A stretch of 54,149 bases of DNA, filler included, from Sphacelaria rigidula (lineage: Eukaryota), in assembly GCA_964200075.2 (NCBI GenBank). It is 3 parts of 3 records of this genome, joined end to end, with 100 filler letters (N's around TTAATTAATTAA, not from the genome) between each part and the next. Parts side by side here need not be neighbours in the genome. Positions count along the whole stretch, not along the records: positions 18,085 to 36,068 come from CAXNAA020000947.1; 2 more parts are not named here. One strand, given 5' to 3'. Each line of letters starts with the position of its first letter. Positions within the stretch are counted from its first letter, which is position 1. Position numbers and translations under genes: made by a program. Shown here piece after piece: positions 4,412 through 51,167 of this stretch. A model generated the notes under the pieces. The model saw only the letters and a program-made list of their open reading frames with translations. It was not told where the DNA came from and ran no database searches.

Positions 4412-5177
4412 GAACAAGATTTACAGAGCCTGCTCGATGCGGTGGACCGAACAACCTTCGACGACACCCTCCGCAGCGATTGCGACCCATCAGCAATGGG
4501 GGCGTGTTCCCAAGTACGGGGGAAATCGTCTACCACCCCATTGCCCAGCAACATAGCCCCCTCCGACAGCGTCACCCCAGACAGCCGAGCCCCACTCTCG
4601 AAAACGACAGGAAGCGGAGTCGAAAGCGTAGATGGTGGCGGCAGCACCGCCATGCCGAATTCGACGGACATGCTGTCTACTGATAGCGGAGCACATGACG
4701 CTGTAATGTTTTCCTTCTCCGCTTCCGCCGCCGGGGCTACTAGCAGTGTTTCTCGGGCAGGGATGGTCCGCGGAATGGGGACCGCGCATTCAGACGTGCA
4801 GGTCGCAGGCTGTGGCGGGGACGCGGTGTCTACAGAGCAATCTGGCGCGGGAGAGTTGCTGGTGCTCGAAGGGCAGGGTCGTGGTGCGTCGGCAGGTAAC
4901 GGAGGTGGATCAGGTTCGGCGCGTGCTGTTTCCGAATCACCTCCTGCTGCTAATGGTAATGGTGACGATGGTGGTGGTGGTGGTGGTCGTGATGCTCATC
5001 ATGCTGATAATCGTGATGATGGTATTGACGCTATACCCGTCGAAGACGTGGAGGTCGGCGATGGCGAGGCAACGCGTCCTTCTTTTCCAGACGAAGAAGA
5101 GGGAGAGCGTGACTGCAGCAACGCAACACCAGAAGTGGTAGCGTCAGCAGACCAAACAGCAGCAGCATCAGGGGCCG
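4412..5177 (+). CDS. FHA-PP2C exon, low-complexity Ser/Gly/Asp-rich N-terminal region
   Basis: cag|GAACAAGAT acceptor, 255 open codons, donor GTGCGG at 5178 gives phase 1 matching the next exon; weakest exon of the model. Confidence 0.6.
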
Positions 5178-11100: not shown

Positions 11101-14100
11101 TCGTTAGTGCCCCGTTTCCTACCCATAAGTAGTATATCTCGCCTTCTAAGGTCATATTAAATATCCGAGCACCCCTATATCCGGTGGGGGCGCTTGTAAA
11201 CGGGTATCATGGCTGCATGACCCCGCGCTGGTGAAATCAGGCTGTCTGCAATCTGGAAGATGATCGTAATCGATCCCACAGCCGCTCCGATTTTCGATAC
11301 TTGCCTCACCCCTCCCCTGCTCCCTCTCTCCTGATCGGGCAAAAAAACGGGTGTGCTTTGTCCCGGCTTTGAAAGGATATGAGGTTGATGGTCTTACGAC
11401 TTGTGACATTCAAGATCATGAGTACACCGCACCCCCTTTCGCCCTTATTTCCTTCGACTGCCTGCTGTCCATCGTGTCCATGCTGCAGCATCGCGGACCG
11501 GGAGCTGTCGAGGCACCATAGCATTGTAGAGTGCCAGGAAACCGATGTGTACACGAGCGAGAGCGGCTGCCTCTCGAGTCGCGGCGGCGAGGCGACGAGA
11601 AGCTGCAAGATCGAAGTGGAGAAGAAGGACGGAGGACTGGAAGACCGCAACCGGGGCAGCGGTTGTTCCAAACGATCCACGGAGTATTTTTTGTGCGACG
11701 TCGGGAGCACGAACGGGACTTACGTTCAGGTGGGGTGGGGGGTTGGGAGGATTACGATGCTGTACCTTTTTTTGTTGGTTGTCGCACCATGTAAGTGGTC
11801 ATTCAACGCCAGGAGCTCATATTTTTGCTCCTTGCATCTTCCGCCCTTGCGCTTGTTTTGCGACACACACACACACACACACACACACACAGCGTAGGTA
11901 GGTTACGATATGCTGTCCTACCGTTGGAAAAATAGGGGGCGTGGATATTAGAAAAAGTGACTGCTAGACGAACTCGAGTATCTCACAAGTGTAAATAGTC
12001 TGTATTCTAACAGGGTTTCCGTACATGTGTACCTACCCCGCGGGTACCCACACCTCCTGGTTGTTCGTGCCCTCTACATCCTTGTTCCACCCATTTGGTG
12101 CCGACGTTTTCTGTCAGCTCGTGGGGCCATACGCGAGCAGCCGGCGCTTGGAACTTAGCGACCGTATTCTTATCGGGCGGACAGGCTTCAGCGTCAACCG
12201 CTTCGACTGGGGGATCTGGGAAGATAGAGGTTCCCGCAGAACCATGGAGGATAAATCAGTCGTTATCCAGGTGAACGAAGTACCCTTTGTATTTTGACGC
12301 AATGCTGGTGGTGAAGGAGCATGGATTATTCCTAAAAACTAGTCTCATGGGTTGCAATCTCTAAAAAGAACACGACAAGTGTTGAGTACTGTACTGAGTT
12401 TTGTGTCTGGACTGAAGTGCGTTGCCCCGGAACCTGACACTCAATTCCGCCCCCCCCCCCACCCTCGAAATAATTCACAACAAATGAAATGGCACAAAAG
12501 GATATGGGGGTGGAGTCGTTGACTGCGCTCGGTCTCGGCCCCCAGACCTTCCTCGCTGTTTACGACGGGCATGGAGGGGCCGAAGCCAGCGCGTTTCTGT
12601 GGCAGCACCTGCACGTTGCCATCGCCGAAGCTCTGGAAGAAGCGGCGCCGCGAATTGCGGCTGCGATGCAAGAAGACCGTGAAGCGGTCCGAAAACAGGC
12701 AACGGCAGCGGCGGCGGGTACAATGGCGGCTGCCCCCGCTGATGCGTCAGCGGCGGCAGCGATACCCTCTCTGCGATCTAGCCATGACGCGGACGGCGTG
12801 TTCTCGACCGTTCGGGCTTCGGCGATCGGGCGCGGCGGAGGAGGTGGGGAGGCCATGCGTTGCGCGGACAGGGACGGGGAAGACGGTCATGGTGGCGACG
12901 GCTCCGGGCAAGCCACTGCGGGGCCTGGCAAGGCAGCGATTTTTGCAAGCGGAACCGAGGGGTTGATGGCGTCGCCGGCGGCGGTAACACCCAAGGCCCC
13001 GGCGTCAGCGGCTCCTGCTCCGGCGCAAGGGCGCTTGGGTGGAAGCGACGTTGACGGGACGGAGGGAGTGAGGGACGGCGGAAAACACTCCACTGAGAGA
13101 GAATTTGTCGGTGGAGGAAGCGGCGGGGACGGAAGCGGCGGTGGTGGCTACGGCGCAAGGCCGTGGCGGTACGGCGGATGTGAACGGCAGCCAGCGTCGA
13201 CGATTTCGCCAGTAGCTGCTGCAATCGGCAAGAGGATGGCTATGGCGGCCGATCGACAGCAGTCCAAAGCACCGAGTCTCCCCCAGGAGTGGTTGGTTGG
13301 TGCGAGAGCTTCTCTTGCGGCCGCCGCCGGCACTAGCTGTGGCCGCAGCGTGGGTAAGGCCGCGAGCCGCGGCCATAGCTCCAAACCTCCGTTGCCGACG
13401 TCGTGGGCAGAAGAGGCGTGGGATTTCAACGCGTCCGCTGGGGATGGAGCCGATGGCGGCGGGGATGATGTTCAGGCTGTGGCGGCCGGCGGGGAAGCGG
13501 CGCACGGGGTGCGCACAGCGACGGACGGCGACGGAGGTCAACAGGGCGGGGGAGATCGGGCCGGCTATTCTTGTGATGGTGCCGGTCATGTAAGTGGCGC
13601 CGTAACGACATCGACAGCCAATGAGGGCTATGAATCGGGGGGGGGGGATATGAGCTGGGACACCGGCCGAGAGTCGCCGCCGCCACCGTCTGGGGGTCGG
13701 GGTGGCACTCAGAGCCCCGGCGGCGAGCCTTCTCGGTCGCTGGCGACGGCTGGACTGCCGGCGGGGGGAGCGGGCGGTGCGGCGCTTAGGCCGCAGCGCG
13801 GGACGAAGGGTGTCGTACAGGAGCCGCAGACTTCGGCGGTTGACAGGTGGGATGGATGGCAAAAGGATTGTGATGGTTACAATTAATGATGGATGCTGCT
13901 AATATAAACGTGTGCTTGTTTTCTATCTTTTTCCGTGCCATGCCTTACCGGGCTCTTCTCCGTCTGTGACTTCCGTGTGGTTTTGTGTGCATTGAGTTAG
14001 TTTCTTCTTTCATATTTTTGGGTGCTCGGGCGCGGCCCTAATATGTGTATATATAGAGAGAGAGTGAGAGAGAGAGAGAGAGACTATTATATCTTGCATG

Positions 14101-15620
14101 TAAGGGCCGCTGTGAATTTTTCATCGTGACTCCCACCTTGTGTTTTTCTCATCGTTTTTTTGTGTGTGTTTTCTTTGTTTTCCTTCGTTTTGTCGTGTTC
14201 GGCTCTTGTTCCATTTGTCTGTTATCGTTGTTTTTGTTGTTATCGTCTGGGATTTTTTGTTCCGTTTCTTTGTTTCCCGAACACACTCGAAAGAGAGGTA
14301 AACGAAGCCGTCCGCCGAGCATTCCTGGAAACGGACGAGGAATTCCTACAGACGTCTAGCAGACCTTCGTGCGGCACCACTGCCACCACGGTCATGATCC
14401 TGGGCGATCGGTTCTACAGCTTCAACCTCGGAGACAGCAGGACGGTGCTCTCGCGCTCTGGACGCGTTGGGCTAGCCTCCAAGGTGAAGAATTACGCTTT
14501 TTTTTTTTCGTATCAACGACATTTATCGACATCGTATCGAATAATGTATGTATACTCCCCGTCCCGTAGGTGTGCTTGGTTGTGGGTATTTGGTCGTTTG
14601 GGTGTAATATAGGTTTCAATGGCGATGCTATGGTCGGATTTCTCGTAAAGATGCAGCGCAGACGATGCTGTTGATAAATAGTGCGTTTTTTTGTCTTCTG
14701 AACGTACAAGGAATGGAGTCAAAATACACCCAGTTTTGGCCTTTTTTTCGGGAATCTCCGAGATTTTTTTTTTTTCTTGGAGATATCCTCGGTTAGTGAT
14801 TCCTTAGCATCCAGTGGCAGTGACAGCGAGGACGATTTTTGTCTTTTCGACGTGTTTCTGGCCCTGGAAAAAGGAGGGCGAAATGTGGCCATATTTGGCG
14901 ACTGTTTTTTTTTCTTTTTTGTGGTCGGCATGGGGACAAGCGGCGGTTGTGGCGGGGAGATGAGTGTTGGATGAAAAGACGCCAAATGATGCAACACAAC
15001 GAGGAATCAAACGTCGGATATCGGTAAGGGCCCGCACAAACTCAACCAAACACGATTCCGTAACAGGAAGTATGTTCGAGTCAGTGTAAATATGCTGACA
15101 GTAAGGAACGCAAGGCACCGAAAAAAGCCAGCGTTTCGAATCAGAGTCTCGTAGAGGAGGGGGAGGCGTTGGCGAAGTCACGGTAAGGTTTGTGGAAGAA
15201 GATGATCTGCCTCGCTTTGTGACGATATGTCAATGCGTTGTGCACTGATGGCCATCTATCTCCCCCCACCCCACACGCACAGATTTCTGTCTCGACCTTG
15301 TGTTTATATAATATATATATATACACTGTCTTTCCCTCGTCCAAAAAATAAAATTCAATCCCAACAAACGATCCAACCATCCATCCTCAAACTATTTTTG
15401 AAGTAATTCATGATTAATAATGAATATATATTATTCCCTTTTGTTTTTCGGTCGTTGCGTCACGTTTTTTCTTATTTTATTCCAGGACCACAAACCGAAC
15501 CGTCCGGACGAAATGGAGCGGATAAAGAGGGCGGGGGGAATGGTGCTTCACAAGCGAGTCATGGGGGAGCTGGCTGTTTCGCGCGCCTTCGGAGACCGTT
15601 CTTTCAAGATCGGCATCAAG
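4412..15620 (+). CDS. Partial spliced gene: tandem FHA domains + PP2C (PPM) Ser/Thr phosphatase; 5' start and 3' exons not found on this contig
   Basis: Nine GT-AG exons join in frame: 4412-5177, 5716(or 5719)-5948, 6451-6566, 7640-7759, 11489-11729, 12118-12270, 12501-13846, 14294-14483, 15486-15620. FHA motifs ATVGR..H and ATVGR..SRHH..GSTNGT; PP2C motifs [37 protein letters not shown]. Confidence 0.9.
5716..5948 (+). CDS. FHA-PP2C exon, FHA1 N-half
   Basis: [23 protein letters not shown]...[14 protein letters not shown]; donor GTGTGT at 5949. Confidence 0.85.
6451..6566 (+). CDS. FHA-PP2C exon, FHA1 C-half
   Basis: tag|[44 protein letters not shown]; phase 0 in, phase 2 out; not in ORF track. 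Confidence 0.85.
7640..7759 (+). CDS. FHA-PP2C exon, FHA2 start
   Basis: [39 protein letters not shown]; cag acceptor, GTATGT donor; phase 2/2. Confidence 0.88.
8324..8628 (+). mobile_element. tRNA-derived SINE, family A (intronic)
   Basis: A-box-like TGGTGTGGTGG, B box GGTTCGATTCCC, A-rich 3' tail; colinear with copies at 44182-44534 and 48958-49266. Confidence 0.8.
8640..9040 (-). mobile_element. Possible degenerate Gypsy integrase C-terminal fragment in intron
   Basis: Translation ...[11 protein letters not shown]...[20 protein letters not shown] loosely resembles the post-integrase region of Gypsy pol; PPT-like AAAGGGGGAGGA followed by TGTGGGAACC on - strand near 7935-7950. Confidence 0.3.
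10075..10587. repeat. Two diverged ~155 bp direct repeats
   Basis: ~10075-10230 and ~10430-10587 align (CTCTGCAA..ACTCGC.GTTGAA..GCGAA.TT.CCCTTTG.GCACAGCCG.ACAGAAC). Confidence 0.7.
11489..11729 (+). CDS. FHA-PP2C exon, FHA2 core
   Basis: [16 protein letters not shown]...[15 protein letters not shown]. Confidence 0.9.
12118..12270 (+). CDS. FHA-PP2C exon, FHA2 end and PP2C motif 1
   Basis: [51 protein letters not shown]. Confidence 0.9.
12501..13846 (+). CDS. FHA-PP2C exon, DGHGG motif plus ~390 aa Gly/Ala-rich insertion
   Basis: [22 protein letters not shown] followed by a long open GC-rich stretch; donor GTGGGA at 13847, phase 2. Confidence 0.85.
14294..14483 (+). CDS. FHA-PP2C exon, PP2C core
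   Basis: [15 protein letters not shown]...[31 protein letters not shown]. Confidence 0.9.
15486..15620 (+). CDS. FHA-PP2C exon, PP2C core
   Basis: [41 protein letters not shown]. Confidence 0.92.
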
Positions 15621-20487: not shown

Positions 20488-21582
20488 CTACATGATATTC
20501 ATGACAATATTACGGTGAAACTCAAAAGACTCTGTTGGCAACACTTTAGTGAGGAAATCTGCATGTTGATACTCCGATCTCACGTGAATGATGGAATCCT
20601 CATTCCTCCCGACCAACTCCCTGATAAAATGATGCCGTACGTCGATGTGCTTGGAGTTGGAGTTCGTGATTGGGTTCTTCGCCAACTGAATAGCTCCCTG
20701 ATTATCCTCAAAGACCGGGATGCATGGCATTCCCATCTGCGGCAACATGAAACGCCAAACCTGTCTCAAAAACAATACCTCCTTTAGAATATCTGTCATG
20801 GCAACATACGCTGCTTCCGTTGTGGACAGCGTCACACACGTCTGAGTCCTTGAAAACCAAGACACACATCCACCTCCACACATCACTAGCCCTCCTGATA
20901 CCGACCGCCTATCAGCTGCCTTACTTGCGTAGTCGGCATCTGCAAACACATGAAAGCTCAACCCCTGTATACTTTCTTTGCGAAAACAAATCCCCAGCGA
21001 ACTTCTTCGCCTAACATACTCCATAATACCAAGCGCAGCATGCCAATGAAGGTGTTTTGGTGAGGCACAGTACCTCGCTACTGCACGTACTGCGTTAGAT
21101 ATGTTTGGCCTCGTTTGAGTTGCCAGCCACATCAGTGACCCTATCAATTCCCGAAACGGTAATCCCGTTGCCTGCTCTTCTACACTGAACTCTTCAAGCT
21201 TCGCACCAACAGCGATGGGGATACTCTTTGCCCATTCTATTCCGTATTCCTTCGCCAACTCTTTTGCATATGTTTGTCGTGAAATTTTCAGGGTCCCCCT
21301 TGCAATGTCTCTCTCATAGTACAGTCCAGAATACCAACGTAAATCCCCGAGATTTTTTACTGGGACCATCGTGTTGAGATATTCACCAAACTTGTCACAT
21401 CTGTCTTTCTTTCCCACTGCGAATATATCATCTACATGTACTACAATGGTGATAATCACCCTGCATTCCTCAATCAACCGAAATACACATGAATCCGCCA
21501 AGCACTGATCAAATCCCAAAATAAATAAACACTTCGCCAGGTGATTATGCCACTGCCTACTTGCCTGTTTCAATCCGTACAA
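20488..21582 (-). CDS. Copia RT (C-part) and RNase H ORF
   Basis: 364 aa ORF with YGLKQASRQW, VVHVDDIF, DADYA, KHIDVRHHFIRE; upstream RT part (21613-21834) is in another frame. Confidence 0.9.
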   Translation of the reverse strand: MYGLKQASRQWHNHLAKCLFILGFDQCLADSCVFRLIEECRVIITIVVHVDDIFAVGKKDRCDKFGEYLNTMVPVKNLGDLRWYSGLYYERDIARGTLKISRQTYAKELAKEYGIEWAKSIPIAVGAKLEEFSVEEQATGLPFRELIGSLMWLATQTRPNISNAVRAVARYCASPKHLHWHAALGIMEYVRRRSSLGICFRKESIQGLSFHVFADADYASKAADRRSVSGGLVMCGGGCVSWFSRTQTCVTLSTTEAAYVAMTDILKEVLFLRQVWRFMLPQMGMPCIPVFEDNQGAIQLAKNPITNSNSKHIDVRHHFIRELVGRNEDSIIHVRSEYQHADFLTKVLPTESFEFHRNIVMNIM

Positions 21583-23340
21583 ACGTTTGTTGAGTCTTAC
21601 TATTTTACCAAATCAGCTTCCACAACCAGGTGGCAACCGCATGAAAACGTTCTCGTCCAATTCAGACTGTACAAAAGCTTGTTGGATATCAAAATGACGC
21701 AACGCCAGATATTCCTCACAAGCTAGAGTCGCCAACAAACGTACGCTAGAAAATGCTGCAGTGAGGACATACAACTCCCCAAAATCTATGTTCTCCCTCT
21801 GCATATCTCCTCTTGCTACTAGTCTCGACTTCATCTTCGTGAGCTATCCAAACTCGTCCGCCTTCCAGTTATATACCCACTTTGCATGGATATAGTTGTC
21901 CACGAGTTGCTCTTCCGCTGAGTCTATCGTTCCCGCCTCCAGAATTCCCCGCAATTCCCGCCCCATCGAGTCCCTCTATAAATCACCGTACTCCGAGCGC
22001 ACCGCCTGCGTGTATCCGTTGGGGACCGTGAGATCCTTTGCTGGACAATGTGGGACTTCCGGTGGGATGTGCGGCGGGCGCTGCTCACGCAAAGCGGCAT
22101 CTATATCTTCACGCGTCGCCAGCCTCGTCACGAGTCACATCGGTATCCCCCCGCGTCCCCCTTTCTCACCATCCTTGCCCTGTCGCCCGGCATCAACTAC
22201 GCCGCGCGTGAGGAGAGCAGACAGCAAAGATCGCTTATCCAACTGCTGCATGAGTCCCCAGCTGTGGTGCAAGAGTGCAGCCTTGTCTGTCGTGTATTGC
22301 GTCGACCCTGACCGCATCCGCCCTGGCTACCGGGGGTCTGTTTCCAGATCCAGCTCCTTCCTCACGCTTGTTGGGAGCGGCGAGAAAGAATGGTTCATCA
22401 CTTCAGAGGCGGATGATGCATCGCGCGACGCAGTCGAGGAAGATGCTGACGGTATCGGAGATGGGATCGGGGCCGAAGAGCCGGAAACAATCGGCGGGGA
22501 TGTCGGCGGCGATCGATGCATCGGTGGAGTTGACGGGTGCGGCGGCGTGTGCTGCACCGGTGGAAATGTCGGTCGCGGCGGCGGCAGCATCGGCTGGGTC
22601 GGCGGAGTGCGCTGGCGCGGCGGCGGCTCGAATTCCACTGTGTGATATGTCAGCGGGAGCAGCGGTGTGGCGACGGCGGCGGCGATGCTGCCATGAACCT
22701 CCTTCCCCCCGACGAGCGGCGTCTGGACCTCCCTCCCCCCGACGAGCGGCGTCCCGTGGTGCTGCTCTGCTGACGGCGCGGCGGCAGCGGCGACGGTACT
22801 GGAATGTGCCGCCTCCCCCCCGACGATCGGCGTTGCCGACGATTGCAGTGGCACACGTGGTACCGTCCAGACAACGTTGTTGGTGTAGCAGACTGCACCG
22901 GTAGCAGCCTTCAGGACCTTGACCGTCGATGAAGAATGGTTACTGCCATTATTGAGGTAATGGCAGGCCACGGACTGAAGATCAATCTTTCCTCGGCGGT
23001 TGACCCGCATCATGCCGGGTTGCAGAAACGGCACAATCTGTAGCGGCGGGGGCTTGCCGGTTAACACTTCATACGGCGACAGTCTTCCCGGGTTCGCCGT
23101 TGTAGCGGAACGATTGAACCCGTCCGCTGCGCACACCGCGGCCTTCAGCCACATGTGCTCCATGTATCTTCACGAGGAGGTCGGCGTCCATTTTTTATGG
23201 CTGAATAAACCCTGAGGTCGCCTGCGCGAAGCGTAGCCTGAACGCTAGCGTAAAGCCTGAAATTCCTACTCGGCGCAAGGATCTATGTGTGAGAAAGGTC
23301 GTGGGACCTCTGTTGTTGAATTGACTCCCTTGTTGATAAC

Positions 23341-27534: not shown

Positions 27535-27739
27535 TGTAATGCATGAGAAGCCCGTGTGCTCAGGGGACCGCGCCGTAGTCCAAAACACCCGAGGATCGAC
27601 TTTTTTCGAAACCAATCGGGCCAGTCCCTGCAGGAACTACGCACCTGACCCTATCCCTAACCCTAACCCTAACCCTAATCATAGGGATGTTCAAATTCCG
27701 ACGCGGTCCTCTAAGCACGCGGTCCTCTCACGCATTACA
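27535..27739 (+). mobile_element. ~205 bp TIR mini-element with central (CCCTAA)n
   Basis: Starts TGTAATGCATGAGAAGCCCGTGTGCTCAGGGGACCGC, ends GCGGTCCTCTAAGCACGCGGTCCTCTCACGCATTACA; CCCTAA repeats at ~27649-27677. Confidence 0.75.
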
Positions 27740-27977
27740 CGTGCCATCCATCAGCATTAGCCAACAACGTATAAACGACTCGTCAACGGGGAAAGAACAC
27801 CTTCCCGCGAGTACAATAAGTTGGAAAAACCACACATGATACCGAAAACCAGCACGTTGAGGTTGAATCTTTCGCGGCACATGCTTGCGTACGGATTACA
27901 GGTTGACAACCACGACTGGATGACGGTCCAGCCATAGAGCAACGTGTTCCACCTACCCATCGATTTACGGGACAACT

Positions 27978-28195
27978 TGAAATGCGTGAGAGGATCGCGT
28001 GCTTAGAGGACCGCATCGGAATTTGAACATCCATATGGGTTGGGTTAGGGTTAGTGTTAGGGTTAGGGTTAGGTTAAGGGGCGTGGTGCCTGCAGGGACT
28101 GACCCGATTTGTTTTTAGAACGTCGTCCCTTAGGTGTTTTAAACCACGATGCGGTCCCCTAAGCACGCGATCCTGCGGTCCTCTCACACATTACG
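27978..28195 (-). mobile_element. Second, inverted copy of the telomere-repeat mini-element
   Basis: Reverse complement of 27535-27739, with TTAGGG repeats at ~28037-28080. Confidence 0.75.
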
Positions 28196-29659
28196 CAGCC
28201 GACCGGAACGAGTGATTGACTGTCGGTATCGTCAGGAGAAACGTATTTGGGGTACACACAACCACCGACAATGAATCCGAGACGAATAGCCCAACACGTT
28301 CCTGAACCACATATAAGCACTGAGAGGGAGGAGGCACACGCGGTCCGCTTCGTCGGTGGTTGCCCATTCGGACGAAAACCGAGAGGATGCGCACGCACAC
28401 AAACGAAAAGGTGAACTCCAGCCGGGCACACCACCATGTCATTTCGTCACCAACAAATCCTTAAAAAAAGAGACACCACCAAACCAATTTCGAGGGCGGT
28501 TGATCGTATGTACAAACCGATGCAATTGATCAGAACATAGCCCATGGCGGACTGGTTGTAGGCTGTACCAAATGTATGTCGAAACAGTAAAACTGGAGAG
28601 AAATCGTTTCCCAAAAAATAATATTTCCTACGAGCATGATGTGTTACGGATGGGTTTGTTGGAAAGCAGGCGTCCATTGTGACGGGTATAAACCGTTCAA
28701 GCAAGGAAATTTGAGTTCTGAACAAGACAAGATAAACTAAGTACCCCTGAGTACTATTTTACATGTTTCAGTTCGAGCGATGTTCCCAAAGTACCCCCAC
28801 AGTTGTCATAAATCATATCTGAAAGGAGTGTGCCGGCACTCTCGCTAGGGAGTTCAGACCCCGTTTGGGACCTAAACGAGATATTATTTCGAAAAAACAT
28901 ACAATTGATCCTGAGCATACACTGCACTGCATCTTTAGGAGGGTTTTGCAGGCAGTAGGCTCGCCAACCCGGTAACGGGAGCTGCTACTACTGTGTGCCA
29001 GAATAGATGGAGCCGAGTCTCTCCTGCACACCTCCTCCTACGAAATGCTGAGCACTACTGCAAGTAAGTGATAAGGCACATCTTCTGCATATATATACAA
29101 ATTTGTTGTGCAAAGGTACGAAAATGACGGCGGGGCTGTATGTGCTGGATTTTTTGCTACCTCATCTGCTAATGTGCTACGGGTTGTCAAAAACAAAAAC
29201 AACGGGTAGCAACCACGCTGCCCGATGCAGCGACGCAGCCCACCCCAACACCAGTTCCCAACTCTGCCTGGAAGGAAGTGACCATACAAGGCGTGATAGC
29301 TGGTTCAGAATGCATGAAGCACCTCGCACGGGCGCTACTGGCGAAACAACCCCAAGCGTAGGAGGTTCCACAATCTCGTTGTGCGTGTGTCCAGTTTTGT
29401 TTTTGTTTGTTCCACCCGACTGACTGTACTTTTTCCCGGGGCTACTAGGAGCTTAGTAGACGTTACAGAAGTGAGGTAGCTCACGCTCTTGTCTGCACAG
29501 CAGGCGAGTACCTCGCTGCTACATTTTGCCTGCTCTTCACTTCGAAAATATACATGCACGCAAACGACCAGCACTGTACTTGCGTCGGCGGCAGTTGCGC
29601 GACGGGGACGACGCCTTGTTACGTGTGTCCTGTAGCGCTTAGAGGCACGTCCTGTTCAA

Positions 29660-32600
29660 CGAATGCTGCACCATGACGGTGGTTTTTCTGTTGAACTGCT
29701 CATCATGCTTGGGCTACCGTATAGAAACTTCTGGGTTAGGGTTACATGGCCGAAACTGCTTCCGTATCCCAAGCCTATTGGACGAAACAAATTAAATTTC
29801 GATGACGACTTCAACCTCATCCAAATGTTGAACCTCAAAAACGGATCCAGGCTGCTCCTAGTAGACTGAGTCGTGAAAAAAAAAGAATAAAAGTCAAGAG
29901 AAGAAAAGCATAGAAAGGACTAATTGCCGATCTCAACCAAAAAAAGAAGGAAAAAAGAAGGAAAAGGCCCAAGGGATTCAGGGCAGCAGAGTAGATACAG
30001 ACACACACCAGTGGGCTCCGCAGAGCCACCGACTAAGGGCATAATCAACAACCGCTGTGAGCAGACAGGATTATTCGATTGATCATAAAAGGGATTTGCG
30101 CTCTGGCGTGTCTTCTGCGCTGGAGTGTGTCCTGCAGCCCAGGACTGCTGCTGCATGTTGTGTACTCTATTGTAGTAGCTGCGTGCTGTATGTAGCATCC
30201 GCAGCCGGTAACGACTTATAAAGCCGGTAACAATAAATAATGATTTGAAACCAGTATCCATATTTTTCATATAACCATTACCATGATTACCATTATAATA
30301 ATAATGACCAGTGATGACTGGTACCATTTCCGAGCTCTTGGCAATACAGTATAGAACGGTGCAGTAAGTGCAGTACAACAAGTATGGTACCGTAAATACA
30401 GCAAATTCTCGTGTAGACGTTTTGTTTCTTGCCTTCCTCTGCTAAAAAGAGATCCATCCATGGCGAAAAAAAAACGGTTTCGCCGAATTTCGAAACTAGT
30501 TCACTTTTTCTGCATACAGCTTGTACATGGGAGCTCTGGAGCGCCTGGTATACTACTCTTATTCAACCAGTACGCAGCAGTGTAGTACAACCCCGTTTTC
30601 AGAATAGTACAGCTCACCCGAGTGCAGCATAGAACATGGCTGGTCTAGTGAAGTGGGGTTCACTGTAGAGCAGTATACAGTCTGCGAAGTGTTGTGCATG
30701 GTGTGGTAGGGCCTCGACTGTCAGATGAAACCACCATGTGTACAGTGCTACCGTAGTGCGTATATCGCGGTCGTGTCAAATACTGCAGGATCCACCACAT
30801 GCCTACTGCGTTCTCCGGGCATGTGTCACTCTGTGGATGGTATACTCCACGAGGTAAGGTACAAATTGCTACTGGTGCCGTAGTCTTTCGCAACCACCAA
30901 TCGTTGGGCACCTGCTCCTGGGTTCAATCAATACTCTATGTGGAGAGGAATTAATGGAGTTGGCGCGGACGTAGATTTTGAATTGTGAATTTAGAAGGTC
31001 GTACAGGAGCACAGTTGCATGCCGGGATTACCAGACATGACGGCACGGGAAACGAAGGTCTGTTGTAGTTGGGCAATATCGCAAAATGGAAGGAACAGCA
31101 CAATGAAGGACACATTGGATCAAAAGTAGTGACCTTCAACCCCCCATATACCCACCCACCCCTCCGGCTTCTCCGATAACCGCGGGTGTGGTATATCCTC
31201 AAGGCTCGCAGTTGGAATGCAGGCACTGGGGTGCTCCTAAGACGCCGCCCGAGGCAGCCCGCACGCGAGATACGGCACCGTTATCGATCCCGATGTAACC
31301 GCGCTATAGCACTCCTGCTGCAGTGACCGGGCGAAGTAGAACAGATGCAGGTTCCACGCATCTGGCACCAGTCCTCTCGTTTCCGGTGAACAAGGGTGTT
31401 TTTGAAGGAAATTGAAAATACCTAGACCTGCTTGTATCATGGGCCGACATGAACACTCCAGTCTCACGCTCGCAAAACTTTCAACACCACAAGATTGACG
31501 CTCTGTGCCCATATACCCTTGCGCCTCCGCCTCCGGACAGGTGGCGACGTGCGTGCGCCACTCCGGCCGCGATCCCGTCCGGAACATGCCACATACGCTG
31601 TTGAAAGCACACCTCGACCGATATATTCCGAACGTGGGGTGTCGGCGGATAATCTGAGGGAGATCGTCGGGGGCCATATTGACAAAGGGGGTGCTGCGCG
31701 AAAGGAGATAAGCCCCCCATCGTATGCTAAAGACTCGGCGACTGCATTGTTCAGTGCCTCGGAGGCATCAATGGCTTCAGCTGATGACGCAGGTGTGGAA
31801 AACCGTGGCTGCGCAGGGGGGCGCAGCTACCGTCGCAGTGCAGAGCGTAGCAACCTTAAACGTTTCCGGGCGGGGAAGGCGCTATTGGTGAACTTGCGGC
31901 AACTTGCGCGTCGGAAAGCTACACACGGAGGATGTCGCCATCAAATACGTCGTCAGTACCTATTCAAGAGGTGGGTAACACTGCGCGTGAAGGTGTCACC
32001 TTTTGCGGCGATAGACTTGTGAGGATGGGGGGGTTCAACTCCCGATGCATATGGTGCAGATGCCGGAATCGGACTTAAAGTTCGTTGAACGATTGCTTTC
32101 GGTGTCGTTGGGCGACAACAGAAATTGGGCAAGGGCGGGGCTGGACGAGCGGCAGGAGATGGCGAACAGGTTTTTCGAACAAGTTACAAACAAGAAGACT
32201 CCTACTGCGTTGGATAAACTCGTGCCTATCGCAGAATATCGGGATGTCTCGGAAGCGGCAGAGAGGGAGCACCTGTTCTTCGGGGAGGGCGCCGGGCGGA
32301 ACCCTGCAAGAGAGTTGGTCCTGAAGCGCTACCTTCATATGACAAAGGCGTACCAGAGCCTGCACGGTACTCCGGCCTTCGCGCCGGCCGGCGAGGAGCT
32401 GCTGCATGCGCTCAACGGGCGAGTGGTTAGCGGTCCACAGTTGGTGGCCGTTTTGTCGTGCTCTGACATATCCCGGGGAACGTTGGATGACAATATCGCG
32501 TGTTACGTGTGGGGCGGCAAAACAAGGAAGGGGGCAACAAAGCAGAACGTGTGCACGATCCCGCCGAAGAACGTGAAGATCACGCCGAAGAAGGGTCAAG

Positions 32601-35507
32601 GCCGGGACTCGGTGTAGAAATAAAACACGAACAACAATACCATGTATACCCAGAAGCCCCTGATCGCTTTACGTGCGATCGTGGGGGTGCCCAATATTTC
32701 CCAGGAGAAAAAGAGATGGTACTTCTGAAGCTCGGGGCGTCTGTCCCGCTCAGCATTCTTAATTCCAGCGAAGGTGAGATAGATCGCTACCACTGACTGG
32801 TAGTGGTGTCAAAGGAATACGAACACCCACACGACGCTTCCTTAGCAGTTAGCGAGTTACAGCCCGTGTATGTCTAACCTTGGTTCAATATGATAAAGTT
32901 GGTACCCCCAACCCAAACTAGTTGCCAGATATTTATAGTGGGGATTCTGAGCGGACAGACTGATTAAAAAACAAATCCTTCACCCGCGTTCATTTTTTGT
33001 AATACTGGCTGCTCAGCTTTAGGACTCGCCAACAAACGTCTCGTAACACAGTGTACAGAATATGCCTGTCCCGATGCCGAACAGCTAGATCCGCACTACG
33101 TAGCACAAGGTTGTGCGGTTGTCTACGCCGTGGAAGAGCATCGAGAATCTCCTCAGGCCGTCACAGAAGGCGGGTATCCAGCGGTCGAAACTCACCATGT
33201 GGCAAAAGTGCACACTGAATGGACCGACGCTGGGATCGAGCTATTGGTGTTAGCATACGACGGCCCCGACGACGTGGGAAGTCAAGGCGCACGAGCAGCG
33301 AGGGCGGATAAATAAAGTTCAAAAGGGCGTCAGGAAGTTCCATCCGACGTCAACCGCCCCTCTTTCCAGGGGGTCAGGCCTTCAAAGCTTACTTCGGGAA
33401 AACAACAAACACGTACGGAACTACCTTGCCAGCGATACTTTCGAGCGAGTACTAGTCTAGAACCATGACGGGCCCTTGACGGTAACGTATGGAAGCAGAA
33501 TACCGCCAACCCTAAGTGGTTACACACCGACACATATGGCAGAAGAAGCCCCGGAAGCAGACAACGGAGGGGGCAACACAGCTGCGGCGGTTTTGGTAGA
33601 CGAAGAGGGGTGTGACGGTGTGGATAATCGCGGGTGGAATGATGCGAGTCGGCCATGGAATGCGGAAGGGGTGATTACCAAGCTACCGGGGGGGGATGGC
33701 GGCGACGAAGGCGGAGTTAGCGGTGTCAGACGCGGGTGCTTCCGGCGACGGGCTGGTGGAGGCGGACTGCGCGTCGTCTTCAGCGGTGCCGGCAGGGGTT
33801 ATCGGCGGTAGAGCTATGACAGGGGCGCTCATGCGGACATATCTTGAGACATTGTCTGGTGGGGGAACACGCCCAGGGGCGATCGCGGCGATGAGGGAGC
33901 CACACGTGGTGATGATCGAGCTCTCGGAGGGGGCGGTGGCGACGGCGACGGAAGTAGTGGTGTCAGGCGCGAGTGTTTACGGCGGCGGGTTGGCGGTGCC
34001 GGTCTGTGGGTCGAATCCAGCGGTGGCGCAAGGCGGGCGGGGGCATGGAGTACCGGCGATGCCGCCCGTATCGGGAGATGCAGCGGACACTACGGCGGGC
34101 GGGATTATCGGCGGTAGTGCTGTCGCAGACGCGCGCCCACGGACGCATCTCGAGGCAATGACTGGTGGGGGAGGACGCGATAGGGCGGCCGCGGCGATGA
34201 GGGCGCCACGAGTGCGTGTTGGCGCCAGTGCGGAGGTTAGGGCGATTCCACCGTCGTATCATGCAGCATTTTCAGGTGGCGGGGAGCGGGGAAGAGCGGC
34301 GGCAAAAGCACGTCTGCCAGGTGCGATGCCCCCCTCACCGACCTACTCATGACTCGCAACGTCACCTGCTGTGGCAGCGCCATGGCAGTGGGCCTGACCG
34401 AGGTATCCACAGCGCAGTCGGGCCGGCATAGGGGAGGGAGAGATGTTCGCAGTCCACATTACCATCCAATCCGAGAGATTGTTCGAGAAGCAATTGACGA
34501 AGTGGCTCATACCTACCGTCGAAACTGATCATATCATGATTGTTCTCCAGGCTATGTCCACCGGATGGATACCGCCGCAGGGAGCCGAACGCAGTGCAAG
34601 TAAATGTTAAACGCATCGTGAGCGGCGCCCCCCGGCATACACTGGTGAGTAGGGTGTACAGGGCGATCGTGGATCTAAGAGACGGCAGCGAAAGTGCTTG
34701 GCCGTCCGACGGGTGGTATGCTTGGCCGACGCCACCTGTGAAGGTGGCCCTGTTTGTTTTTGTCTACCTGTTAGCTGGCTGTGACTTCCTGCCGCGCGTA
34801 TCCGGGATGCCCCTTCCGACGATGTGGGAGTTCGTTCTGAAGGCGGTGCGATCTCCGAACCTCTTCACAAAACCGATAGGGGAGATTAACGGCAAAACCC
34901 CGCAGGGGAATATCGATGACGGCGTATAGCTGCTCGCCACGGTATCTTTTTCAAGTGCGAAAACACCTTTGAGCAGGTCGCCACAGCCCCGGGTCTTCTC
35001 TTCACCACGTGTGGGCGGGACTTAAAGTCAATCGTGAAGAAGATACGCCTCTGTATCACCACAGTACATGGGTACATGTCTCCTCTTTGCTGCCAAGATT
35101 TGGATGCCTGTAGGACGCACGTGCAAAAGTCTGATGTAGTGTTCGAAAACTGGCGGGGGGGCTTCGGGGTCGAGATGTTCGCAGTGAACTCCAACGGACG
35201 GGGATGGGGTGTGGAGCCGGAAAAGAAAACTCACCACAAGGGTGGGGTGAAGGCGGCGAGCAGAGGGGAGATGAAGCTGACACGGGACAACATAGTTGTG
35301 TATCTGTCAAGGTACACGTACGTTGATACATCTGGCAACGTAGAAACTCTCAGATTTATATGCAAACCGGAAAAGGCGGGGAACAGAAGTCACCGATGGA
35401 AAAAATGCAAGTTTTTGGGGAAGTGCACCCTGAGCTGCGGTTGCCAGGGCCGCTACTTCTTGCCCCCAATTCCTTCCCCCACCGACTGGCACGACTCCCA
35501 CAGCTGA
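29660..35507 (+). mobile_element. Decayed AcademX-like DNA transposon coding region (transposase-like, PIN/XPG-type 5'-nuclease, Cys-rich finger)
   Basis: Ordered frameshifted motifs: LHHDGGFSVELLIMLG (29666), VVTFNPPY (~31126), FKRWVTLRVKVSPFAAID (~31963), LLVLAYDGP..GARAAR (~33240), GIGEGEMF..TVETDHIM (34425-34540), YLLAGCDFLPRVSG (~34765), LDACRTHVQKSDVVFENW..GRGW, KKCKFLGKCTLSCGCQGR (~35400). Termini not identified. Confidence 0.65.
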
Positions 35508-36068
35508 TCTCGCTGGAGAAAATATAGAAGGGCGGATTCACGGCGAACCACCGCTGGGATAAATGCACTGCGTGCCGTGGAAGGGGCGAGGTGAATGAAG
35601 CAACGACGGTTTCGGGAACCGCGGTGAATAGGAGTTCTGGTAGGGAGTCATGTCGGCGCCACGGCGGGAAGTTGGGGGAGGAGAGATCGGTCGCGGGAGC
35701 AGCTACAGCCGGTCGCAATTTTTCCGATAGCGGGCCAGACGAACCGACAGAGGGCGGGTGTAAGCTTTCAGCCGGGATCTATCTGGATTGGAGATCTAGA
35801 CTAAGTTTGCAACAGGTTTGAGAAGGAGGACTCGGCATCGGAAGCGGGTTACGGCCATGATGATGATTTCGCGTTTGGATTAAATCGGTTGGGTAATTTC
35901 GAGGCATGTTTTCTGTAGATGCATTGTACGCCTACACCTGTAGTAGCGGATACTCTGTTGGGTGATTTGGAGGCATGCTTTCTGTGGATACGTTGCACGT
36001 ATATATTTGTAATAGTAGGGGTTGTCGTCTCCATTAGAGTCATCCTACGATAGGGGGGGGGGTATTTT

Positions 36069-36168
36069 NNNNNNNNNNNNNNNNNNNNNNNNNNNNNNNN
36101 NNNNNNNNNNNNTTAATTAATTAANNNNNNNNNNNNNNNNNNNNNNNNNNNNNNNNNNNNNNNNNNNN
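36069..36168. other. Artificial contig spacer N44-TTAATTAATTAA-N44
   Basis: Identical to the spacer at 17985-18084. Confidence 0.98.
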
Positions 36169-49266: not shown

Positions 49267-51167
49267 CGCGGACCAGGCTCGCCACCCTTGGCGAGTTCGA
49301 GTGCCCCGTGCGTGGTCCGCGTAGATTATGGGAGGGCATGTCGAACAGATCTTGTCGAAGGCGCCTAATGGCCCAGGTGCTTACTCCGCCTTCCAACTCT
49401 AGTGGACTTCAATTGGACTCGTTGGGCAGGGAAGCGCGGCTGACATGAAGTATGGGTCGAACGGAGCCATCTAGTTGACGTTGATTTAGTGTCGCACCAA
49501 ATCTACCTATGCTGGCGTCCGTGTGAAGTTGGAAGGGGCGAGAGGTGTCTCGTACTACATCCCAACCTCGACAACATAGTACCAGGTCTTCGGTAAGCGT
49601 TTCAATATTCCGCGAACGATAGCTTCCGTGTCGGTGGTGAATAGAACACGGCACCTTTGTGAGTAACTCAGCAAGAGGGCGGATCTTTTTGAACAACCTG
49701 TTAAAATTATGCGATAGTAGGAGAGTTCGCCAAACATTGAGCGAAGTGGACAAATGTTGGTGGGCATCGGTAACTCGGTCATTGCCCGGGCTTTGGTGTC
49801 CGGGTGCAGGCCTGCTGACGAAGTGGAAGGTCCCAGAGAGTCCAAGTCAGTCACACCGAGGCGGGTTTTGGATGGGGACAGTTTCAGATCGTGCGTTCGT
49901 AGGCGAGAAAGAATTCTCGTAGAGTGCATTCATGCGGAATTGGTGAGACATGGAAAACGATAGCGCCATTCATGTACATTATGATGTGTGCTAGAGGCCC
50001 GACGCGTTGTATGCATCAAGCGTTGAAAGAATCCTGGCGCAGTGCGACACCTTGTAGCATACGAAGCCATTCGTAGAGTCCAGACCAGGCACAAAATGTC
50101 GTGAGTGGGACTGTGTCAGGGTGAATAGCGTTCTGGAAAAATCCAGAAGCAAGGTCGAAGGTACTAAGTATTTTTTCCTTCGCCTCAGGCGTCGAAGACT
50201 TCATCGTTGCGGGGGTTCGGATTTTCAACGACGACAGCGACGCGATTCAACCGCTTCACGGTGATGCGTATGCTATCATCCTTTTTGGGGAGGACCACCA
50301 GTGTCAAAACCCAAGGAAAGGAAGAATCTTGTATTAAACCTGCCCCCCAGATATGCATTTGAGGTGACGTTTACATTTTTTGGTGAGAAGTGGGTTTGTC
50401 CGGTACGGCCGGGAAGAGATTGGCGAAGCGCCAGCTCAAGGCGTCTTCCCGAAGGGCAGCGTTATGCGATGCCCAAGATCCGTCTTGTACCGAGGAAATC
50501 GGTCTTGCTAAGGCAGCAGAACATTACTTAATTATTGCATGACAGCTGGTTCCGGACAGCGTTCATAAAGGTCAAAAGTAATGTCGTGCAGTGTGACAAT
50601 TGGTTCCATGCGTGCAAGAAACTATTACGAGATTATCACGGAAGGCGTTAAAGCACTTCAGCAAGAGCATCTGAATTTGACGGCGCGAGGTCCACAGTGT
50701 AAACATGAGGCAAAGTTGTAGAGTACAGGTGAAAAAAAGCTCGTTGACACAGCATACAGAAAAATCTGTCGAAGGGGCGGTGCTGGGCGCCGAAGGATCA
50801 GTTACGTACGTCTCGAGCGGGGTGTGCATTTGGAGCACAGCGGCGATTCCCGAAATATCACCGGGTTCCGAGCTAGCGTGGATCATGAGGGTAGGAGTTG
50901 TTTTCCCGCTGAGACAAAGTGCCCCGTGTCGGCAGATGCACCAATACGGGGTAGCATTTCAACAAGGTGATGTCCCGTAAGTGCGGGCGTGCCAACTCGG
51001 CGAACTAGTGCGATTTTTAGAAGCTTCTGATCATCGGAGAGTGCAAAACTACTATTACCGTTATATCGCAGGTGGCCAACAGCTCCGGTTGCTTGATTGT
51101 TTTAGTAGGCCAGGGGGGCGTGGAGTGTACCAGAGTTTTCAAGGTTGAAGCATCCACGAGGCGCCAG

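Follow-up and report, generated by a model that had tools for sequence, protein, structure and literature searches.

The question raised by this locus is whether a 54,149-nucleotide stretch of Sphacelaria rigidula DNA (the window) contains a DNA transposon of the AcademX type and, if so, how much of it. The original prediction placed on the + strand, at 29660-35507, a frameshifted coding region of about 6 kb that would specify a transposase, an XRN-like nuclease and a Cys cluster. All of the quoted strings are present on that strand. The transposase would be marked by LHHDGGFSVELLIMLG (29666-29713), VVTFNPPY (31126-31149) and FKRWVTLRVKVSPFAAID (31963-32016), the spacing given for the first and third being only approximate; the nuclease by LAYDG (33250-33264), GEGE (34431-34442), VETDH (34518-34532) and LLAGCDFLP (34768-34794); and the 3′ part by LDAC..H..W..G (35100-35168) and CKFLGKCTLSCGCQG (35406-35450). 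The homologous stretch, however, spans only 32045-35876 (3.8 kb). We read this interval, with a probability of roughly 0.6, as a dead, 5′-truncated copy of a multi-copy brown-algal family representing an AcademX-type cut-and-paste DNA transposon.

Predicted proteins of S. rigidula (P0006, P0004 and P0005) matched 32045-35876 on the + strand in tblastn searches, with 48-79% identity and E values of 3e-90 and 1e-111; matches from 32045 onward lie far above chance level. Residues 386-608 of P0006 aligned with 32045-32713 (68% identity, E 3e-90) and residues 607-630, in a different frame, with 32707-32778. This segment (32045-32778) corresponds to the linker that follows the DUF6589-like core of the family protein and is interrupted by two in-frame stops and one frameshift. 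The N-terminal part of the 5′ nuclease, with motifs I and II, occupies 32968-33279 (P0006 residues 614-717, 54% identity, E 3e-26) and is followed by a Gly/Ala-rich, low-complexity spacer between motifs II and III (33280-34332). Residues 31-411 of P0004 then matched 34333-35477 (48-64% identity, E about 1e-111): residues 31-236, in frames 1, 3 and 1, cover the nuclease core (34333-34950; two frameshifts, two in-frame stops), and residues 236-411, at 64% identity, the conserved C-terminal domain up to the Cys cluster (34944-35477). The tail of P0004 reaches 35876, its residues 518-628 aligning at 32-59% identity with a degenerate, low-complexity, acidic segment (35540-35876) that shows one frame change and one stop and ends in ...DDDFAF; P0002 also extends to 35876.

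The predicted frameshifting was borne out by four switches between 32707 and 34947: from frame 2 to 1 near 32707, 1 to 3 near 34413, 3 to 1 near 34590 and 1 to 3 near 34947. Because adjoining matches meet end to end or share a few bases, these switches reflect small indels rather than introns. In-frame stops were found at 32615-32617, 32621-32623, about 34429 (an approximate position, following the frame 1 stretch of the nuclease core), 34927-34929 (the second in the core) and about 35793. With no transposase core, at least four frameshifts, five stops, and one catalytic Asp and four of nine Cys gone, the copy is, to judge from its sequence, incapable of the proposed transposition functions. 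Since it is broken and front-truncated, and intact relatives combine three domains in one protein, it is most likely an ordinary transposon relic, the fossil of an Academ-type element rather than a working one. The copy lies amid retroelement fragments and high-copy repeats.

The stretch holding the three claimed transposase motifs (29666-32016, + strand) is not demonstrably part of the element. The DUF6589-like core of P0006 (residues 1-385) found no match anywhere in the 54-kb window (tblastn, E up to 10), no frame of 28000-32044 was similar to it, and no Pfam family was detected in the ORFs of 29636-32022. The segment 29428-30534 belongs to a separate, far more abundant repeat, with a summed contig depth of 3e4-1.5e5 versus 5e2-7e3 over the nuclease; 30535-32010 shows low repeat depth, with 1-5 variant contigs. 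Thus, with P0006 residues 1-385 unmatched and 29428-30534 assigned to another repeat, the homologous stretch is restricted to 32045-35876. The three motifs were rejected as a transposase, no relative matching them and no Pfam family being found.

Overlapping relatives rebuild one long protein of >1,300 residues, comprising a DUF6589-like domain, a linker of about 250 residues, a 5′ nuclease and a C-terminal domain that closes with a nine-Cys cluster and an acidic tail. The DUF6589-like part and linker come from P0006, whose C-terminal stretch aligns with the start of the nuclease in P0021 (E 3e-9) and in P0158 (E 3e-6); P0160 and P0018 span nuclease motif II to the Cys cluster. Residues 199-313 of P0006 matched profile positions 104-231 of Pfam DUF6589 (PF20231), a eukaryotic family of unknown function, with E 2.8e-5 and 23.4 bits, a score below the gathering threshold of 27 and obtained with this single protein; the window copy encodes none of DUF6589. 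In the Atlas, 28 of the 30 clusters nearest to P0006 share the DUF6589 set at 0.94-0.95, with a structural TM by query of 0.75-0.81 over 354-371 residues. These DUF6589 neighbours are all eukaryotic and most often come from Mollusca, Cnidaria, Basidiomycota and Mucoromycota. Modelling of P0006 with AF2 gave low confidence (pLDDT 34.4), and a literature search found no function tied to DUF6589.

The predicted nuclease and Cys cluster proved real, by the P0006 and P0004 matches and the nuclease fold search, which support a FEN/XRN-superfamily (PIN-like) 5′ nuclease with a Cys cluster downstream of it. In intact members the nuclease has all seven acidic positions (D, D, E-x-E, D-x-D, D), split by the low-complexity spacer. 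The window copy has lost the motif I Asp, since AVVYAVE (33115-33135) stands where relatives show AVDYAVE or IDLPV. Its motif II is LAYDG, and its VETDH replaces the S-DTDQ of relatives. In GCDFLP, the GC and P are invariant across the family alignment (A2). The spacer holds a diverged duplication of 306-bp period, a direct repeat of 33790-33908 and 34096-34214 with 75-76% identity; it is variable and of low complexity in relatives too (alignment A2), and the equivalent segment of the nuclease model has pLDDT <50.

As to which nuclease this is, GEGE and DFLP presumably resemble XRN motifs. GEGE is not a fixed signature of the family: among 28 proteins showing the motif, 12 have GEGE, 10 have GEAE (the FEN1-type E-A-E) and six have other forms. 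The XRN-like part of the original prediction stood on fold instead, as the model search placed Xrn1 and Rat1 above EXO1 and XPG. These searches used one AF2 model (mean pLDDT 64.5, 148 of 411 residues <50). VIA-align against 48,161 chains returned only FEN/XRN-superfamily 5′ nucleases in its top 17 rows, with Z scores of 9.2, 8.8, 8.5 and 8.1 for Xrn1 (270-280 residues aligned), 7.8 for Rat1, 7.7 for EXO1 and 6.9 for FEN1, followed by T5 exonuclease (6.7), XPG (6.2), GEN1 (6.1) and T4 RNase H (6.0); unmatched models often reach a best Z of 7-8. Foldseek gave no PDB match at E<=1e-3. Its rows to rank 24 were XRN1, XRN2 or Rat1 (best E 4.5e-3, versus 0.48 for EXO1), except for a CRISPR-Cas entry at rank 20 (probability 0.11); ranks 11-13 were further chains of entries already listed. 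Its top 15 BFVD matches were giant-virus XRN exonucleases or Mimivirus R528/R528a proteins (best E 8.8e-4). Together, these results support a fold that, on this one mediocre model, appears more XRN-like than XPG/FEN1-like. The match extends over 267-280 residues on Xrn1 about 19-351, but at 10-16% identity, and the family nuclease is far shorter than XRN and fused to a transposase-like domain. With FEN1, XPG, EXO1 and GEN1 it shares the superfamily fold (Z 7.7-5.2) and the acidic order, but Z is lower and the alignment some 60 residues shorter than with Xrn1. The XPG nuclease domain also contains a long disordered spacer. None of 54 family members matched Pfam XPG_N, XPG_I or XRN_N at E<=1, and neither sequence nor profile searches of the PDB retrieved a nuclease for the family.

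In the C-terminal domain, the nine-Cys pattern CxC..C..CxC..C..CxC...C is complete in 21 family proteins. The window copy keeps five of the nine and reads F-I-C..W..C-K-F..C..C-G-C...Y. We take the paired-Cys spacing to be similar to that of the Tesmin/TSO1-type CXC domain (Pfam TCR, PF03638; CxC...C..CxC...C...CxC..C) and of other CxC zinc clusters. None of the 54 members matched Pfam TCR at E<=1. The nearest named Atlas cluster of the nuclease is molluscan, with TCR in 36% of its members (score 0.88), and serves as a lead only.

The family is multi-copy and comprises 268 representative clusters (50% identity) at E<=1e-3, 142 at E<=1e-10 and 33 at E<=1e-30. Among 150 listed, the median length is 157 aa and 98 are <200 aa, mostly short fragments. 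The brown-algal host was confirmed: of 20 clusters looked up, five carried names, all brown algae (Ectocarpus sp. CCAP 1310/34, Pylaiella littoralis), and named relatives were in every case from Sphacelaria, Ectocarpus or Pylaiella. Paralogues inside one species are 27-39% different. Runs of the source organism likewise show several copies: contigs identical to the window have a depth of about 67-88 in X1, and those >=80% alike sum to 498-2,081 over 30535-34593 and 5,154-7,052 over 34594-36060, sums that by the tool's own warning are not copy numbers. Between 4 and 20 different contigs bear variant letters. Depth is about five times greater over the family's 3′ part than over its middle, which internal-deletion DNA transposons alone do not predict. 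These data support reading the region as the decayed remains of a coding sequence from a repeated family.

AcademX is reportedly a lineage of the Academ superfamily of eukaryotic DNA transposons, and is named for its XPG nuclease. The brown-algal family likewise joins a transposase-like domain, a FEN-superfamily nuclease and a Cys-rich cluster in one protein and is multi-copy; it differs in that its nuclease has no Pfam XPG match and a fold nearest XRN. The AcademX layout thus holds for the intact relatives, with DUF6589 upstream in the same protein, but the window copy lacks the transposase, and neither TIRs nor 3-4 bp TSDs were found around it. Published accounts describe AcademX as the nuclease-encoding and AcademH as the helicase-encoding lineage (PMC10045372), the latter with a transposase and RecQ-like helicase (PMC3627910, PMC10045372), and report Academ to be abundant in bivalves (PMC10294476) and in Pucciniomycotina and Mortierella (PMC5751038). 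The transposase family is presumably common to AcademH and the brown-algal family, but the latter has no helicase and instead carries a nuclease, fused in frame, as its accessory enzyme. Academ membership appears plausible from the architecture and from the DUF6589 neighbours, which belong to molluscs, cnidarians and rust-type fungi and coincide with Academ-rich groups; we infer that DUF6589 is the Academ transposase. The literature searched contained no report of AcademX in brown algae. In an intact element, the DUF6589-like domain, presumably a DDE-type transposase, would cut and join the element ends, the fused XRN-like nuclease might trim or resect 5′ ends or flaps at the donor or target site, and the Cys cluster would bind zinc and DNA.

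The relic could instead derive from a mobile or selfish element outside Academ, with DUF6589 a distinct, as yet unclassified transposase or another kind of enzyme and the three-part likeness to AcademX a convergent architecture. The sub-threshold DUF6589 match, the want of a literature link from that domain to a function, the failure of all 54 members to match Pfam XPG, and the absence of visible TIRs and TSDs would all fit such an origin; we consider it unlikely nonetheless, as the layout reported for AcademX is precisely this fusion of DUF6589, FEN-superfamily nuclease and Cys cluster, and the neighbour taxa are those rich in Academ. Decay of a paralogue from a host or domesticated, non-mobile gene family, such as expanded nuclease genes used by the alga, is improbable. 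Many predicted proteins do exist in annotated genomes, and contigs of run X8 (only guessed to be RNA) align to 33018-33674 and 34558-35459 with a likeness of about 84-88%, and hence some copies may be transcribed; but the family is large and mostly fragmentary, its divergence within species is typical of old transposon families, and the window copy is full of frameshifts and stops and set among retroelement fragments and high-copy repeats.

Integrated phaeoviruses are known in brown algae, and a fragment of one, or of another of the Nucleocytoviricota, could have brought an XRN-like exonuclease gene. The giant-virus XRN matches speak for this, as do Atlas leads from the nuclease to Pox_G5 (0.84) and NCLDV XPG clusters (0.82) and one cluster at 0.96 labelled 50% viruses, on six members with known phylum. 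Yet cellular Xrn1 and Rat1 match as well as the viral enzymes, the DUF6589 domain fused to the nuclease has exclusively eukaryotic neighbours, and neither a relative in two scans of 2.9 million viral contigs nor a viral hallmark gene among 48 ORFs scanned in the window was found, making a viral source very improbable. Equally slight are the chances that 29660-35507 is a complete element of some 6 kb whose transposase lies at 29660-32020, an idea largely refuted by the upstream results: 29428-30534 falls in a repeat whose depth exceeds that of the nuclease region by a factor of 20-200, and LHH alone occurs 19 times over the six frames of the window. Still, the quoted strings exist, P0006 is a partial protein, and 30535-32010 shows weak repetition, comparable to that of 32011-34593, so that it could be the 5′ part of a deletion derivative beyond the available proteins.

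At the opposite end of the probable AcademX-type relic, an assembly gap consisting of runs of N around a TTAATTAATTAA linker (36069-36168) lies 190 bp past the coding end, and the 3′ terminus of the element may have been lost or left unjoined there.

Homology to predicted proteins of S. rigidula delimited a decayed coding region on the + strand. In a word-based protein search, the ORF at 32015-32617 matched the predicted protein P0006 (731 aa) with 68% identity, while the piece at 34920-35507 matched five others (P0001-P0003 at 63-73% identity, P0004 and P0005 at 61-63%). Tblastn aligned P0006 residues 386-608 to 32045-32713 (E 3e-90), residues 607-630 to 32707-32778 and residues 614-717 to 32968-33279; P0004 residues 31-236 were aligned to 34333-34950 across three frame changes, residues 236-411 to 34947-35477, and the tail of P0004 reached 35876, all on the + strand. 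The original prediction had placed an AcademX-like transposon with an XRN-type nuclease at 29660-35507; the stretch homologous to relatives is instead 32045-35876. The motif strings quoted in that prediction all occur on the + strand, the spacing given for two of them being approximate, and its description of a frameshifted coding region was borne out by tblastn with P0004 and P0006, which revealed no fewer than four frameshifts and five in-frame stops. Since adjoining tblastn matches meet within a few bases, the frame changes are small indels, and GT-AG introns were ruled out as their source.

Decay extends to the conserved motifs. The first acidic motif reads AVVYAVE in the window copy and AVDYAVE in relatives, with loss of the first Asp; the D-x-D motif has become E-x-D (VETDH versus S-DTDQ); and five of nine conserved cysteines are kept, the others being changed to Phe (twice), Trp and Tyr. 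Comparison of 11 window ORF pieces to Pfam gave chance-level matches only and no family. The window copy is a dead, 5′-truncated relic, by itself junk DNA and relevant to repeat annotation only. No second copy was found when 28300-36060 was compared to the window by blastn; the sole match was an internal duplication with a 306-bp period and 75-76% identity at 33790-34214, within the Gly/Ala-rich open frame of the nuclease spacer. This spacer spans about 350 codons in the relic versus about 140 in Ectocarpus-type relatives.

Three of the quoted strings, lying at 29666-32016 upstream of the nuclease, had been read as transposase motifs. This reading found no support. Residues 1-385 of P0006, which contain its sole transposase-like domain, have no counterpart anywhere in the 54-kb window (tblastn, E up to 10); no Pfam family is matched by ORFs of either strand within 29636-32022; and the segment at 29428-30534 is a different repeat, with a summed contig depth of 3e4-1.5e5 versus 5e2-7e3 over the nuclease region. 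The interval 30535-32010 shows weak repetition (1-5 variant contigs) and might conceivably represent a 5′ piece of a deletion derivative. The frame 1 segment at 31453-32022 was considered as a continuation of P0006 upstream of residue 386 and rejected, as it gave no significant alignment and was not colinear.

The organization of intact members could be pieced together from overlapping family proteins. The C-terminus of P0006 (...HAVDYAVEAH...ELLVLAHDDPDMVGIIKAPEQRGRT) can be aligned with the N-terminal ends of P0021 (E 3e-9) and P0158 (E 3e-6), whose sequence there is ...IDLPVxIHQG...LLxVxYDRxxxVPxIKxxEQxGRT. P0021, P0158, P0160 and P0018 run on through GP-IGE[GA]EL, W-VTS-DTDQ, VNRVY and YLLAGCDFLP into a conserved C-terminal domain that extends up to a CxC..C..CxC..C..CxC...C cluster. 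As judged from these overlaps, intact members thus encode a single protein comprising a DUF6589-like domain, a linker, a nuclease with a low-complexity spacer, a 9-Cys domain and an acidic tail. The 9-Cys cluster is complete in 21 proteins examined. A Cys-rich finger, described as Cys8, is also a feature of Academ elements.

The N-terminal assignment comes from a sub-threshold match of Pfam DUF6589 (PF20231) to P0006 residues 199-313, with an E value of 2.8e-5 and 23.4 bits, below the cut-off of 27. Features and structure from the ESM Atlas support it: DUF6589 is common to 28 of the best 30 clusters by features (0.94-0.95), and the Atlas model of P0006 superimposes on DUF6589/PF30719 clusters with TM scores of 0.75-0.81 by query over 354-371 residues. 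Mollusca, Cnidaria, Basidiomycota and Mucoromycota are the phyla most often represented among the nearest DUF6589 clusters. An AF2 model of P0006 made without an alignment was too poor to use (pLDDT 34.4, pTM 0.21). A literature search on DUF6589/PF20231 returned nothing on function.

Sequence comparisons gave no name to the nuclease portion. P0004, P0005 and P0002 have no match in Pfam, none of 54 family members matches XPG_N, XPG_I or XRN_N at E≤1, and no nuclease was retrieved from the PDB by a sequence search with P0004 or by a profile search with the family alignment A1. The family alignment does display seven conserved acidic residues in the canonical FEN1/XPG order: D (IDLPV/AVDYAV), D (YDR), E-x-E (GEAE/GEGE), D-x-D (DTD; 37 of 40) and D (GCDFLP, whose G, C and P are invariant); we take these positions to correspond to FEN1 and XRN residues. 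The GEGE motif had been put forward as an XRN signature. It is not diagnostic, the 28 proteins showing the motif having EGE in 12 cases, EAE in 10 and other forms in 6. At its own motif, DFLP is the form seen most often (39/51).

A model of the family protein P0013 was built with AF2 on a 54-row alignment (mean pLDDT 64.5, pTM 0.62). The model is good over the C-terminal half; pLDDT falls below 50 for 148 of 411 residues. When this model was compared by VIA-align to 48,161 chains, the first 17 rows were all 5′ nucleases, with unrelated folds appearing from Z 4.8. Xrn1 led with Z scores of 9.2, 8.8, 8.5 and 8.1 (270-280 aligned residues, rmsd 4.6-4.7; 272 residues and rmsd 4.7 for the top row), followed by Rat1 (7.8), EXO1 (7.7, 212 aligned), FEN1 (6.9), T5 exonuclease (6.7), XPG (6.2), GEN1 (6.1) and T4 RNase H (6.0). 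In Foldseek against the PDB, the rows down to rank 24 are XRN1, XRN2 or Rat1 (ranks 11-13 being more chains of entries already listed), the one exception being rank 20, a CRISPR-Cas complex (probability 0.11); EXO1 comes at rank 25 (E 0.48), and the best E value is 4.5e-3, no row reaching 1e-3. Among viral models (BFVD), giant-virus XRN exonucleases or Mimivirus R528/R528a occupy the first 15 places (best E 8.8e-4), with the poxvirus nuclease OPG089 at rank 18 and the FEN1-like Cop-G5R at rank 48. All three structure searches share one mediocre model, and the Z scores of Xrn1 and EXO1 differ by only 1.5. By this model, the domain is predicted to be a 5′ nuclease of the FEN/XRN superfamily, and the order of the matches suggests a fold nearer to XRN than to XPG/FEN1. 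To this extent the structure searches side with the XRN-like nuclease proposed originally.

The family is multi-copy: a HMMER search with P0004 covering 1.84 billion representatives (clusters at 50% identity) found relatives in 268 clusters at E≤1e-3, of which 142 reach E≤1e-10 and 33 reach E≤1e-30, and Sphacelaria and Ectocarpus each have several paralogues. The median length is 157 aa among the 150 clusters listed of the 268, and such short lengths have the look of fragmented transposon relics. Five of 20 clusters looked up bear names, all of brown algae (Ectocarpus sp. CCAP 1310/34 and Pylaiella littoralis); the remaining 15 are unnamed ENA or Logan records. No DNA relatives were found in viral contigs scanned with P0004 and the family alignment A2, nor in metagenome contigs scanned with A2 and P0006.

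Contig depth, which is not a copy number, is in line with a family present in many copies, the 3′ part being the most abundant. Window-identical contigs have a depth of about 67-88 in the sequencing run X1. The summed depth of contigs at least 80% alike is 498-2,081 over 30535-34593 and 5,154-7,052 over 34594-36060, 7-100 times that of the window-identical contigs, a ratio that does not count copies. The 3′ part (34594-36060) has about five times the summed depth of 32011-34593, indicating that 5′-truncated or 3′-only derivatives dominate; this is an odd decay pattern for a cut-and-paste element. Contigs of the run X8, whose RNA label is a guess, lie on 33018-33674 and 34558-35459 at about 84-88% likeness, and other family copies may be transcribed; among the runs listed as containing the stretch itself, none was of RNA.

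Repbase classes Academ among the DDD/E superfamilies (PMC9587614). It includes AcademH, with a helicase and target site duplications (TSDs) of 9-10 bp, and AcademX, with a nuclease and TSDs of 3-4 bp (PMC10045372). Also reported are a RecQ helicase encoded in Academ (PMC3627910), an Academ RNase H-like domain for which Pfam offered no model in 2017 and, within the fungi, a peak abundance in Pucciniomycotina (PMC5751038), and an expansion in bivalves, where elements average 5.6 kb (PMC10294476). The brown-algal family resembles AcademX in joining a nuclease of predicted FEN/XRN-superfamily fold and a transposase-like DUF6589 domain in one protein; like Academ, it is dispersed and multi-copy. 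Unlike AcademX, the window copy has no transposase. No inverted repeat brackets 30400-36036 or 27740-36036, the 5′ end being missing and the 3′ end abutting the gap at 36069, and the candidate ends 27740/36036 and 30380-30600/36036 display neither inverted repeats nor a TSD. The layout of the family and the taxa of its DUF6589 neighbours fit Academ well. We consider membership in Academ plausible (probability around 0.6). Literature searches for Academ in Ectocarpus or brown algae gave unrelated co-mentions only and no account of the superfamily there, Repbase and Dfam being outside their scope; the word Academ does not occur in the main text of the Phaeoexplorer preprint; DUF6589, PF20231, XPG and Academ have no mention in supplementary files 1-12 of the 33 of PMC10294476; and no literature combining Academ, XPG and transposase was found.

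Excision and integration of an intact copy would fall to the DUF6589 domain, the trimming or resection of 5′ ends or flaps at donor or target sites would be the task of the fused 5′ nuclease, and binding of zinc and DNA would be provided by the Cys cluster. That brown algae carry a distinct, undescribed Academ-type lineage whose accessory enzyme is an XRN-like 5′-3′ exonuclease, as opposed to a classical XPG/FEN1 flap endonuclease, is a tentative and rather unlikely proposition. If true, either AcademX overall uses a misnamed XRN-type enzyme or a third kind of accessory enzyme exists in addition to helicase and XPG, and DNA transposition would have co-opted a domain whose other known role is in RNA decay. 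An accessory nuclease closer to XRN would be relevant to the processing of DNA ends by these elements, and possibly to the differing TSD lengths of AcademX and AcademH (PMC10045372). The family extends an Academ-like architecture to stramenopile algae and offers a concrete handle on the role of DUF6589, a transposase-like domain here fused to a nuclease. The decayed copy is of modest interest; the predicted XRN-like nature of the accessory nuclease is the sole point worth following, and an intact copy would make this question testable at the bench.

The window DNA is eukaryotic and rich in repeats. At 11373-14609 (+ strand), a Pfam scan of ORFs recognized FHA and PP2C domains of what is probably a host gene, which includes a long GC-rich (62%) open frame without Pfam family at 12474-13883. 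The same scan identified a copia-type RT fragment at 20491-21612 and a gypsy-type RT-RNase H fragment at 49412-49846, both on the - strand. The scaffold join falls 190 bp past the end of the relic's coding region, at an assembly gap (36069-36168) made of two N runs flanking the six-frame stop linker TTAATTAATTAA. Upstream of the relic, a MITE-like structure at 27553-28170 has 100-nt inverted arms (27643-27742 and 27975-28074, 89% complementary) bearing telomere-like (CCCTAA)n/(TTAGGG)n runs and is part of a very high-copy repeat, its summed contig depth reaching as much as 4.8e5. At 27739/27740, hundreds of contigs stop with unrelated continuations, so this position looks like a true repeat terminus (...CTCTCACGCATTACA). 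In three DNA runs, with 2-11 contigs per joint variant, this end is joined directly to sequence resembling 36037-36060, a joint that skips about 8.3 kb and whose right side is backed by only 24-25 letters. The segment 27740-36036 could be a composite insertion relative to other copies, in which case the 3′ edge of the nuclease element would lie at 36036.
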